The notes below the pieces were generated by a model, which was not told the origin of the DNA, did no database searches, and was given only the letters and a program-made list of their open reading frames with translations. From a virus (taxonomy: Duplodnaviria > Caudoviricetes), in IMG/VR virus record IMGVR_UViG_3300030330_000961, positions 1 through 50,048 of that record: DNA of 50,048 bases; one strand, given 5' to 3'. Positions 32,970 through 48,255 of this stretch are shown here, in pieces. The translations under genes were made by a program, and so were the position numbers. The stretch's first letter is position 1, and every line of letters begins with the position of its first letter.

Positions 32970-33042
32970 ATTCTCTCTCCTATAAAAAGCTAGGGGCAAA
33001 CTAACCTAAATTAATTCGCCCCTTGTGCCCCCCTTAATTCGT

Positions 33043-33072
33043 ATTATACCACGGGGAGGGGTTGTTTGTCAA
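33043..33072 (-). promoter_or_regulatory. sigma70-type promoter
   Basis: TTGACA-18 nt-TATAAT with extended TGn. Confidence 0.65.
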
Positions 33073-45353: not shown

Positions 45354-45757
45354 AGTCTCGTCACCTCTCTTTTAATTATGTCAAGTAATTTTGGATTATC
45401 ACGGAACACACCCATCAACCAATTCGTCAAAGTGTTGGTGACTTGTTCCTCGTTGTCGTCTTCTTTCAATGCACCTCCGTCAGCATTTAACGAAGACAGA
45501 TAAACTATGGCATGCATTATCTCATGTAGTAATGTATTCGCATAGTCAATTCCGTCAACTTCTTTTTGTATTTCAATTCTGTTTTCACGAGACAGATACT
45601 GCCCCCAACAATCGGCATTGTTCTTAGTAAAAGAAGCAGTAACTCTATCTATTTTAATATCGGCAAAGCCAACCTTTACTTTATCTAACTCTTTGATTTT
45701 ATTGCTCAAAACTAATCTCCATATCTGTATTATACTTTCTTTCTTTTCTACTGTCAA
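45350..45757 (-). CDS. HExxH zinc metallopeptidase-like protein
   Basis: WGQY......I.I......NTLLHEIMHA...EEQ; start uncertain. Confidence 0.75.
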   Translation of the reverse strand: MTVEKKESIIQIWRLVLSNKIKELDKVKVGFADIKIDRVTASFTKNNADCWGQYLSRENRIEIQKEVDGIDYANTLLHEIMHAIVYLSSLNADGGALKEDDNEEQVTNTLTNWLMGVFRDNPKLLDIIKREVTRL

Positions 45758-46154: not shown

Positions 46155-46311
46155 AATCGTAAGCCCTTTCTACTTCATCTTCAAAGACATGCAGTTGCGA
46201 TTGCCCATACTTATCAATAAACATTTTTCTTGCAGTCGGTACATCACGCACCTCTAAAATGTATTGTGAATACTCTTGCATTTCCATCAACCAATTTTTT
46301 ACTCCACTCAT
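46132..46311 (-). CDS. hypothetical protein
   Basis: Start reset to MSGVKNWLMEM after GGAGG. Confidence 0.6.
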   Translation of the reverse strand: MSGVKNWLMEMQEYSQYILEVRDVPTARKMFIDKYGQSQLHVFEDEVERAYDYENTYAY

Positions 46312-46312
46312 T

Positions 46313-46480
46313 CTAAGCCTCCATCTTTCTGTGCAAGAAACATAAATCATCTATTGCTAATTCAACAAAGCTATTCTCTTGCATGTTTTTTATTTCGCAT
46401 ATTCGTTTCATCTCTTCATAGGTTTCCTGCGAAATTGAAAAACCTACTTTAATAATATTTGGGTTAGTCTCTTTATCCAT
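46313..46480 (-). CDS. 55-aa ribbon-helix-helix-like DNA-binding protein (not in ORF track)
   Basis: KVGFSISQETYEEMKRICEIKNMQENSFVELAI: alternating strand plus two helices, CopG/Arc-like. Confidence 0.55.
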   Translation of the reverse strand: MDKETNPNIIKVGFSISQETYEEMKRICEIKNMQENSFVELAIDDLCFLHRKMEA

Positions 46481-46481
46481 G

Positions 46482-46685
46482 TCAGTTTTCTCTCTCTAAT
46501 TTATAGACATCAACAGGTATTGTTGTTACTGTGTCAGTTATTTCAGGCACATTGACTGATTGCACTATGCTCCGTTGTGAATCTGTTACTGCATGAAACA
46601 CAGCAATCAATGCCCATGCCCATATAATTCCTAATATAAAATAAACTCCAAATAATGTTTTATTCATTCCCCATATTTCTCCCAT
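46482..46685 (-). CDS. small membrane protein
   Basis: Start reset to MGEIWG after GGAG; one TM helix. Confidence 0.55.
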   Translation of the reverse strand: MGEIWGMNKTLFGVYFILGIIWAWALIAVFHAVTDSQRSIVQSVNVPEITDTVTTIPVDVYKLEREN

Positions 46686-46703
46686 ACTTTTATCTCCATA
46701 ATT

Positions 46704-47020
46704 GTGGGGTAACAACGATTGGCTAACGAGAACTCGCTTGGCAATACTGTTGCCCCCATGATTCAAACTAACTGCACACACATAGTTAGGTTTGTGGCAA
46801 AATAGATACATAAACTTTCGCCACACCACTTCTCTTTGGCTCTAATCTCCTGTACGAGTACGACTTATTTCGCTCGACCAAATGTATCTAGTGGCATGAA
46901 AGCGATTGAGTAGCCACACTCAATTAAAACTACATTGTCTTACCAATGATGTACTTGGCGAGGTTGATTATGTCAGTCAATAAACCAAGTCAAAGAAGGC
47001 TTTAACTGTCGCTTTCAATT
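46704..47020 (-). ncRNA. unclassified ~320-nt structured RNA or leader
   Basis: Downstream of a promoter; at least eight helices, a 9-bp candidate pseudoknot, and G-U pairs valid only on the - strand. Confidence 0.65.
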
Positions 47021-47024
47021 CCGT

Positions 47025-47052
47025 ATTATATCATATATAAAATATATTTCAA
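47025..47052 (-). promoter_or_regulatory. sigma70-type promoter for the structured RNA and downstream operon
   Basis: TTGAAA-16 nt-TATAAT with extended TGn. Confidence 0.65.
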
Positions 47053-47071
47053 TAGTTTTCTTTTCGTATAT

Positions 47072-47270
47072 CACCGAACAAGCACCGAGTGATTACCGAA
47101 TGGCAACGGTTTGGGGTATGACACCCCTGTACTGCTATATAATATACGATTATTAATATATTATTATTACAATATATAGTATATATCTTTGGACAATACA
47201 TACTAATCTTTACACCTGCCCCCCTTGACAGAGTGTGTCCAGTCGGTATTCAATCGGTGTTCTTTCGGTG
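47072..47270. repeat. candidate replication origin: inverted 11-bp-period iterons flanking an AT-rich core
   Basis: YACCGA at 47072, 47083, 47094; TCGGTR at 47243, 47254, 47265; nearly pure A/T at about 47136-47190. Confidence 0.6.
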
Positions 47271-47278
47271 TTCATAGC

Positions 47279-47306
47279 GAGAGAGGGGTATATATTCCCT
47301 CTCTCT
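47279..47306 (-). terminator. hairpin downstream of the amidotransferase
   Basis: GAGAGAGGG...CCCTCTCTC inverted repeat; no clear U tract. Confidence 0.4.
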
Positions 47307-47388
47307 ATCAGTTACAACCTAGCTAGGTGAAGGTTTAACCTTACATAACGCAACTGAATATTGTAACATCTTTTGGGGCGATACCCTA

Positions 47389-48255
47389 TTACTTATTTGA
47401 CATTCTGTAAGCACAAAGATCAAATAGATAGTCGGCTACACCTTGAGGATTCGAGACAACCAGATCTTCGATATCCTCGAGACTTGCCCCCACAAGCATA
47501 TCATCTGTGATGTTAAACCACGAATTGTCATCAGGCTTAGATGCCGTACCATAGATATCATCTTTGTATGCGTCATCTCCATACTGCCAATCGTCCCAAG
47601 TAAGTCCACCATAGCTAGTTCTCTTACCATATTGAATCACAGATTTCTTATTGTTGGCTACATCATAGTTATACCCAAGTCCTCTACTAATAGAATAGGT
47701 ATTGGATAGCCAACCAATTCCCTTGACATCTTTACCTTCATCAGAGTTGATGATCGTAAATTCTTTTGTCTTACCATCTAAGAACACTAGCTTATCTGTA
47801 CCAATCATCTCACCCAATGATTCTTGCCATTCGATATTGTATAGCAAGTTAGGATTGTTAGCTAGTTGTGGTTTGATAATCCACTTGATAAATTGATGGG
47901 TGTCAGACTTACCTTTATCAATCATAGGTGTAGGTAAGTTTGGTCCATTATGCATGAGCCATAAATCTCTTCCATGATCTTGTTTATTAAGAACTTGAAA
48001 TGGGTGAGACATAGCTCGATTAGTTTCGCCATGCGTATTGAATCTAAAATGCAAAGCCATAGGAATGTCCATATCCTTGTATGACTTCCACATTTTTTCT
48101 ACATCAGCGAAAGTTTTTGGTACAATTTTGTGGGTATGAACCTTGCCCTGATTGAATAGCATAAGTCCAAAGCCATCAGAATTGTTTTCGTAAGCACACT
48201 CTAATAAATCTCGATTGAGATTTTTAGGTGTATCAGTTTGTATAATTAAACACAT
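47389..48255 (-). CDS. class II (Ntn) glutamine amidotransferase-like protein
   Basis: N-terminal MC, N.DGFG, HFR..THG......HPF, MHNG, SDT. Confidence 0.88.
   Translation of the reverse strand: MCLIIQTDTPKNLNRDLLECAYENNSDGFGLMLFNQGKVHTHKIVPKTFADVEKMWKSYKDMDIPMALHFRFNTHGETNRAMSHPFQVLNKQDHGRDLWLMHNGPNLPTPMIDKGKSDTHQFIKWIIKPQLANNPNLLYNIEWQESLGEMIGTDKLVFLDGKTKEFTIINSDEGKDVKGIGWLSNTYSISRGLGYNYDVANNKKSVIQYGKRTSYGGLTWDDWQYGDDAYKDDIYGTASKPDDNSWFNITDDMLVGASLEDIEDLVVSNPQGVADYLFDLCAYRMSNK

Follow-up and report, generated by a model that had tools for sequence, protein, structure and literature searches.

Genomic setting of the leader region

What is encoded in the stretch of ~320 nt that separates a promoter from the first ribosome binding site (RBS) of an operon at positions 46704-47020 (- strand) of a marine phage genome? 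The locus lies in an IMG/VR record of 50,048 bp, estimated to be 84% complete, which was analyzed at full length and is called the window here. The original prediction described the stretch as a single structured RNA, either a new phage non-coding RNA or a cis-acting leader for an early operon, located next to a candidate origin.

Genes of the window lie on the + strand up to ~30.3 kb, including an ORF of 2,889 aa, and on the - strand from the right end to 30.4 kb. The - strand genes encode an amidoligase, a class-II glutamine-amidotransferase-like (GATase-like) protein (47389-48255), a plastocyanin-like protein, DoxX, a gamma-glutamyl cyclotransferase-like protein, a PD-(D/E)XK nuclease, a UDG/exonuclease, a family A DNA polymerase, a DUF3987 primase-helicase-like protein, and ribonucleotide reductase. 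The DNA polymerase is at most 35% identical to those of cultured phages, with Caulobacter phage Kuura as the top match. In G001, a complete 60-kb relative, the - strand array starts ~4.6 kb upstream of the leader RNA locus and proceeds from small ORFs through the amidoligase to the GATase-like gene. The leader is followed on the same strand by a ~16-kb run of replication and nucleotide-metabolism genes. The array itself contains no fewer than seven more - strand promoters of strong sigma-70-like type, with 10-12 of 12 matches each, and terminator-like hairpins are located at 42453-42438 and 33023-32992, which are 4.3 and 13.8 kb downstream, respectively. The elements that border the leader are as follows.

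47025..47052, - strand: sigma-70-type promoter, TTGAAA (47052-47047), 16-nt spacer, and extended -10 sequence TG-n-TATAAT (47033-47025); 11 of 12 matches, TG present
46697-46694, - strand: RBS, GGAG, from the sequence
46482..46697, - strand: span of the RBS and the first ORF (ATG at 46685), a predicted membrane peptide of 67 aa, from the sequence and the ORF list

The second ORF of the operon (55 aa; 46313-46480, - strand) exhibited a weak PHROG match to the Arc-like repressor family phrog_582 (E 8.9e-4). Judging by this match, its product could be a candidate binder of the repeats upstream of the promoter.

Promoter and upstream repeats

The TGnTATAAT promoter that had been predicted before the RNA on the - strand is present at 47052-47025 and is kept in relatives. 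The TGnTATAAT sequence was found in 33 distinct leader variants, and the promoter of L085, L088, and L093 reads TTGACA-17-TATAAT. On the basis of the spacing, the transcript is predicted to start at ~47019-47016. In all three architectures of the leader, the 5'-most helix begins 7-9 nt past the -10 box, that is, at the predicted transcript start.

The block upstream of the promoter (47060-47272) contains two inverted arms of 32 nt (47072-47103 and 47239-47270; 81% complementary), each of which carries three CACCGA/TCGGTG repeats ~11 nt apart. Between the arms lie an AT-rich block, which is highly conserved, and a GGGG...CCCC hairpin, and the repeat-promoter block as a whole is 62-83% identical at the nucleotide level to that of five relatives. 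An arrangement of this kind could be an origin or an operator array. The GC skew of the window does not turn at 47 kb; its sign changes at ~30 kb, together with the gene orientation. The early operon and adjacent origin of the original prediction remain putative; another possible role of the repeats is that of operators for an Arc-like repressor, which is encoded two genes downstream. An extra copy of TCGGTG was observed within the optional leader hairpin of L033-type relatives.

The leader consists of separable modules

A search with the GATase-like gene yielded 37 viral loci, ten of which have kept the non-coding stretch by blastn, and the anatomy of the leader was derived from MAFFT alignments. 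From 5' to 3', the layout comprises the inverted pair of CACCGA repeats, the promoter, domain 1 (optional), domain 2, a tRNA-Cys (optional), a 28-nt hairpin (optional), the CUAACU hairpin, a long hairpin, and GGAG followed by ATG. The idea of one unit of ~320 nt accordingly had to be replaced by that of three modules that are present or absent independently, with domain 1 dispensable and domain 2 universal. Domain 2 was found in every relative having this region and is unchanged by the modules gained or lost around it.

The optional tRNA-Cys(GCA) is 74 nt long, has an encoded CCA, and begins 6-7 nt past the P4 hairpin of domain 2. ARAGORN detected it in three of the eight sources scanned (L007 2835-2908, L008 1935-2008, and L069 1378-1451), Rfam in L052 and L065 (807-877), and inspection by eye in L073 and L083. 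The cassette occurs in lineages with and without domain 1, suggesting gain, loss, or recombination. The insert after domain 2 measures 0, 28, ~80, or ~110 nt, and the distance from domain 2 to the RBS ranges from ~100 to ~250 nt, depending on whether the 28-nt hairpin, the tRNA-Cys, or both are inserted. Insertions and deletions of 28-134 nt are tolerated between the modules.

The gene after the leader is also exchanged. Following the same RBS and ATG, the first ORF is the membrane peptide in the window, another small peptide in L010, and an inserted gene in L089 and L090. The inserted first genes of the latter two reuse the RBS, spacer, and ATG, and a near copy precedes the displaced gene. 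From its sequence, the 3' end of the leader in L089 and L090 looks like a recombination boundary at the RBS.

Domain 2 is a conserved pseudoknotted core

The covariance model R1, built for domain 2, returned 45 matches with scores of 118-141 bits, representing 23 distinct sequences. The following elements of domain 2 were assigned.

46794..46895, - strand: domain 2, three-way fold with a pseudoknot, 102 nt, from covariance model R1 and pair counts
46895-46890/46830-46825, - strand: P1, GCCACT/AGTGGT, three compensatory pairs
46890-46882/46811-46803, - strand: pseudoknot, 7-9 bp, formed by a perfectly complementary 9-nt loop, two compensatory pairs
46882-46877/46840-46835, - strand: P2, invariant
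46876-46874/46863-46861, - strand: P3, invariant
46824-46794, - strand: P4 hairpin, GTGGCGAAA/TTTTGCCAC, two compensatory pairs
46841..46860, - strand: purine-rich unpaired segment, nearly invariant in the alignments, containing GUACAGGAGAU (46855-46845)

The results revealed that 99.7% of the 712 cells of the domain 2 alignment are paired, compared with 93.1% in column shuffles and 40-50% when the pairing partners are slid. Compensatory changes occur in seven of the 31 pairs among the 23 distinct sequences, whereas slid registers yield 0-1. Both the predicted second domain closed by TGCCACT/AGTGGTG and the predicted complementarity between the loop at 46803-46811 and 46882-46890 were confirmed by these counts, the former as P1 and the latter as a perfect complement with two covarying pairs. 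G-U pairs fill 46 of the 712 cells and would be C-A mismatches on the other strand; the polarity of the RNA is therefore fixed as the - strand, as had been proposed from G-U pairs found on that strand only.

P2 and P3 never vary in the 23 sequences, so covariation is no test of either helix. The changes in P1 and the pseudoknot separate the window type from all other types, and those in P4 separate the L007 type from the L033 type, with G-U intermediates in L059 and L010. Diversity among the relatives is low, and the changes fall on few branches, as few as two or three, and represent few independent events.

The 5' strands of P1, the pseudoknot, P2, and P3 run on from one another without a single unpaired base, and P4 follows directly after P1. 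Within the purine-rich segment, GUACAGGAGAU includes a Shine-Dalgarno-like AGGAG (46851-46847), which is not followed by a start codon. Inside GUACAGGAGAU, a single position varies: 46848 has G instead of A in the L010/L065, L090, and L060 types. We infer that this segment is a recognition surface.

No other element of the locus is as well conserved as domain 2. In comparisons with five relatives, it is 78-86% identical at the nucleotide level, compared with 59-76% for the adjacent GATase-like gene, a range that sets aside a fifth value of 50% from a truncated copy; domain 3 is 58-90% identical.

Domains 1 and 3 also covary

Domain 1 forms a multibranch fold upstream of the core and is missing in approximately half of the relatives (L005, L010, and L033 types).

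46897..47017, - strand: domain 1, multibranch, optional, from covariation
47017-47009/46905-46897, - strand: closing helix, perfect 9 bp in the sequence, three compensatory pairs
46992-46985/46958-46950, - strand: second helix, two compensatory pairs
46984-46959, - strand: tip hairpin, clade-specific, missing in the L003 and L007 types
46948-46944/46937-46933, - strand: CATTG/CAATG hairpin, one compensatory pair
46924-46905, - strand: ATTGAGT/ACTCAAT hairpin, from the sequence

In domain 1, pairing is kept in 98.6% of the cells. Compensatory changes were observed at six of the 27 pairs in eight distinct variants, a count that leaves out two L085-type variants. The predicted 9-bp helix that closes the multiloop was found to be perfect and to covary, and the CATTG/CAATG and ATTGAGT/ACTCAAT hairpins of the original prediction are both in place. 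The predicted AGTTAAAG/CTTTGACT hairpin fared differently: it is present in the window but is lost through A-G mismatches in the L002 and L007 types, and an alternative helix (46992-46987/46956-46950) covaries where it fails.

Two hairpins make up domain 3, between the core and the RBS.

46768..46789, - strand: domain 3a hairpin, CUAACU/AGUUAG, arms 46789-46784/46773-46768, from covariation
46706..46757, - strand: domain 3b, long irregular hairpin of ~20 pairs with conserved A-A and C-C mismatches, from covariation

Both had been predicted, as CTAACT/AGTTAG and as a long terminal hairpin before the RBS, and both covary. One pair of domain 3a runs through A-U, G-U, and G-C, and two pairs vary via wobble. 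Domain 3b has compensatory changes in its base, middle helix, and apical helix, with an apical loop of variable sequence. Altogether, six of the 21 pairs of domain 3 are compensatory in 26 of the 30 distinct variants, L058, L066, L088, and L093 being omitted as near-duplicates. The 3' end of domain 3b lies 8 nt upstream of the RBS, and the RBS is outside all conserved helices. With its irregular duplex of approximately two helical turns, domain 3b has the form of T7 R-site type hairpins, suggesting an RNase III-type processing or stabilizing hairpin.

Tests of a structured non-coding RNA

A folding energy beyond that of shuffled sequences, which the original prediction would lead one to expect, was not observed. 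The MFE z-score of 46704-47020 was -1.43 on the - strand, with eight of 100 shuffles as stable, and -3.15 on the + strand; domain 2 alone scored -2.1 in the window and -0.1 in one relative. The folding energy being unremarkable, the case for structure rests on the comparison with relatives, and here the expected covariation was found, with 19 compensatory pairs in domains 1-3.

A protein-coding leader frame was ruled out: all three frames contain stops (1-12 per frame) in all 30 distinct leader variants. The GTG-extended frame, which had been named as a possible coding signal, runs without a stop over 52-78 codons in the majority of the window's clade and over only 3-12 codons in others, so no coding conservation extends beyond the window's own clade.

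Known RNA classes were searched for with Rfam 15 (4227 covariance models), which gave no match at the gathering score in the whole window. At E<=10, the region 46300-47500 produced only sub-threshold chance matches to ceN59 and TeloSII_ncR30, both off the structure; at E<=1, five relatives produced only the inserted tRNA and one chance lncRNA match. ARAGORN reported no tRNA or tmRNA gene in the window. A tRNA or tmRNA identity of the leader was ruled out by these two programs, and the original observation that the RNA resembles no known class held up against them. The leader is a real, strand-specific structured RNA family outside Rfam, an orphan of one uncultured marine phage clade. The proposal of a new phage non-coding RNA or cis-acting leader is therefore supported by covariation, the lack of an Rfam match, the lack of a conserved frame, and presence in RNA libraries.

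The survey of Fremin et al. 2023 (PMC10690425) lists 10,006 viral candidate RNAs without names, and the leader motif may already be one of them; six contig ids of the leader family were not found in the supplement tables covered. Titles and abstract openings in the literature on put RNA and on marine phage structured RNAs contain no description of the leader RNA.

The family is confined to one clade

A pattern scan of viral contigs returned 20 stretches, comprising 14 true members and six chance matches in coding DNA. The scan of metagenome contigs returned 35 stretches, 32 of which fit the covariance model and three of which do not; many of these metagenome matches are the same scaffolds as the viral records. 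When the pattern of P3 and the loop was relaxed, 17 stretches were obtained from viral contigs, namely the 14 known contigs and three new ones, none of which fits the model; two of the new contigs are coding (a collagen-like repeat and a peptidase-like gene). A pattern scan for domain 3 retrieved the same 14 contigs and nothing extra. One genome per prokaryote species gave three chance matches, none fitting the model, and blastn of 46400-47450 against 50,697 phage records gave no match among cultured phages. The homologue scans thus added nothing outside the group, indicating a narrow distribution that is limited to a single clade of uncultured marine phages. G000, G001, and G002 each contain one copy of the leader RNA.

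In more distant phages that carry the GATase-like gene, the leader position is occupied by small protein genes (12 of the L011-L038 loci), and in the genomes of two distant carriers the DNA polymerases are only 27-29% identical. In L011-L027, a conserved TTGACA-17-TATACT was observed inside a small lysine-rich ORF at the position of the repeat-promoter-RNA block.

Presence in marine RNA libraries

Of the sampled words of 46600-47100, 4-37% occur in each of 17 RNA-labelled runs, which come from nine studies. In all four runs examined, from four marine metatranscriptome studies, contigs 95-100% identical to the window were found within 46693-47094; the search of metatranscriptomes for the predicted RNA was thus positive, with assembled contigs attesting presence in RNA libraries rather than ends, strand, or level. 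The runs were picked because they contain the leader stretch. The coverage of the leader is therefore partly a matter of selection, and the uncovered parts (46378-46692 and 47095-47238) are no evidence of absence. One contig stops at 47016, beside the predicted start, which is a weak hint; another continues from the leader into an L078-type first ORF, and a third reaches 40 nt upstream of the -35 box. In a contig of run X1, a 10-nt loose end at 46878 matches the opposite-strand sequence of 46849-46840, a strand-switch join that is perhaps a reverse-transcription or assembly artefact at a structured region.

Possible functions of the leader RNA

We tentatively prefer to regard domain 2 as an autonomously folding, protein-binding RNA module that is possibly excised from the operon transcript, and we infer all steps past the fold. 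The stack of P1, pseudoknot, P2, and P3 would provide a rigid scaffold that presents the purine-rich AGGAG loop to a putative host or phage protein partner. RNase P, acting at the tRNA where present, and an enzyme of the RNase III or RNase E type, acting at the domain 3b hairpin, would free the upstream RNA, and the base-paired 5' end would make the released RNA long-lived. The most can be learned from the module swaps. Domain 2 remains constant despite the swaps, the inserts, and the changing first gene, which argues against an aptamer that works through an expression platform and against mechanisms that depend on a fixed spacing to the RBS; a tRNA located just after P4 and cut by RNase P would sever domain 2 from the mRNA, which favors an autonomous module. 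Against excision, no terminator separates the RNA from the ORFs, so the RNA is always co-transcribed with them; the contig that runs into the L078-type first ORF indicates some unprocessed molecules, or contaminating DNA; and the majority of the leader variants have no tRNA. A stronger form of this proposal, which we consider unlikely, is that domain 2 is cut from the leader as a stand-alone effector RNA, acting in trans on a host factor during takeover or self-assembling through its 9-nt complementarity in the manner of phi29 pRNA or ROOL/GOLLD, in an abundant lineage of uncultured marine podoviruses.

The main alternative, nearly as probable, is a cis-acting role: the leader might be a processive antiterminator that acts through RNA alone, like HK022 put or Bacillus EAR, or a 5' stabilizer or processing cassette for the ~16-kb gene run. 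Its position agrees with such a role, since it is always promoter-proximal at the head of the - strand array, occurs once per genome, places its first helix at the predicted 5' end of the transcript, and is followed by the ORFs with no terminator between and by the terminator-like hairpins at 42453-42438 and 33023-32992 farther downstream; moreover, domain 3b resembles R0.3, the RNase III site of the T7 early leader. However, with at least seven internal promoters on the - strand, read-through from the leader promoter is not obviously needed, an excisable tRNA after domain 2 in several relatives would sever a tethered RNA, and the nearly invariant unpaired segment of 20 nt would be superfluous for a simple stabilizer. 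The put RNAs of HK022 consist of two stem-loops and no pseudoknot, and no Rfam match was obtained, including to EAR, which contains a pseudoknot. Antisense action of the purine-rich segment was also considered. RNAduplex found no antisense target in the 450 nt downstream in eight representatives, its energies were no better than those of shuffles, and the target positions were inconsistent; this lack of a conserved downstream complement argues against a c4-type antisense role of that segment.

The remaining readings are less probable. A riboswitch, with domain 2 as an aptamer whose ligand would control the downstream operon, is improbable, even though domain 2 is a compact junction with a pseudoknot and its unpaired nucleotides are highly conserved, as expected of an aptamer in a 5' leader. 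No expression platform was found: 46690-47020 (- strand) contains no terminator-like site and no helix over the RBS, the spacing to the RBS varies by 150 nt and may include a tRNA, the first regulated gene is inconstant, and the family occurs in one phage clade only and not in the cellular genomes scanned. We consider it very improbable that the transcript activates or primes an adjacent origin-like region in the manner of ColE1 RNA II or the promoter-dependent origins of T4 and T7. The promoter does adjoin CACCGA repeats, an AT-rich stretch, a GC hairpin, and inverted repeats, and genes for a family A DNA polymerase and a primase-helicase-like protein are present in the phage, but transcription heads away from the AT-rich block, the GC skew flips at ~30 kb rather than at 47 kb, the repeats could equally be operators of the Arc-like protein, and the downstream region consists of a conserved RBS and ORFs with no sequence like a DNA-unwinding element. 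It is scarcely credible that the locus has no functional RNA and reflects DNA-level signals, a small coding frame, or chance. Folding on the - strand that is no better than that of shuffles, better folding of the + strand, and the open GTG-extended frame in the window would agree with this reading; the 19 compensatory pairs in three domains compared with 0-1 in slid registers, the G-U pairs in 46 of 712 domain 2 cells, the stops in all frames of 30 of 30 variants, and the indels of 28-134 nt between modules stand against it.

Comparison with known phage RNAs

The leader represents a new RNA family, but one that belongs to a known general class, the structured leader and small RNAs of phages. 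The stable RNAs C and D of phage T4 sit in a tRNA cluster, the GOLLD and ROOL RNAs, both of which are Rfam families, are found next to phage tRNAs, and the c4 RNA of P1 and the CI RNA of P4 are cut from operon leaders with RNase P. By analogy, these RNAs may serve as precedents for processed or tRNA-linked phage RNAs. Like RNAs C and D, GOLLD, and ROOL, the leader RNA is a promoter-driven structured phage RNA of obscure role, and in several relatives it is abutted by a tRNA gene, which implies shared processing. Unlike them, it is part of an mRNA leader and not of a tRNA cluster, and most of its variants have no tRNA; it is also much smaller than GOLLD and ROOL and has no Rfam sequence or structure match.

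The leader shares with HK022 put and EAR a promoter-proximal position at the head of a long transcript and the lack of a coding role, and with EAR a pseudoknot, but its fold differs, the EAR model of Rfam does not match, and the intervening tRNA argues against tethering. As with c4 of P1/P7 and CI of P4, the RNA lies within an operon leader, and RNase P-type processing is plausible where a tRNA follows; the Arc-like repressor gene in the same operon recalls the immI-type regions of P22 and P1. The C4 model of Rfam does not match, however, and the purine-rich loop has no conserved downstream complement. The likeness to T7 R0.3, an irregular hairpin of ~20 pairs with internal mismatches between the promoter and the first RBS, is limited to domain 3b, does not extend to the pseudoknotted core, and involves no sequence relation.

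The structured RNAs of phages have been little surveyed, and a role is known for only a few of them. The leader is a tractable candidate because it combines a covariation-backed pseudoknot, a defined promoter, presence in RNA libraries, and natural module swaps that reveal its essential part. Should a host or phage protein, or the polymerase, be bound by the core, it would show how the replication-gene operon is controlled in uncultured marine phages; if it is excised, it would be a marine addition to the small set of stable RNAs derived from phage leaders.

Other elements of the - strand array

Three further elements were observed on this side of the genome. The 99-nt segment past the stop of the GATase-like gene (47273-47371) contains a perfect 9-bp hairpin, GAGAGAGGG/CCCTCTCTC (47279-47305), and is missing from L002, a relative that is 95% identical. 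A perfect-consensus TTGACA-17-TATAAT lies within coding sequence at 45729-45757 (- strand). At 32980-33072 (- strand), a second near-perfect extended -10 promoter (TTGACA-18-TG-n-TATAAT) has an initial transcribed sequence similar to that of the leader and is followed after ~20 nt by a 14-bp hairpin with a U run (33023-32992) and then by an RBS. On the basis of this arrangement, the element is possibly an attenuator or a small RNA of ~60 nt, and an upstream G run could pair with the C run of the hairpin.
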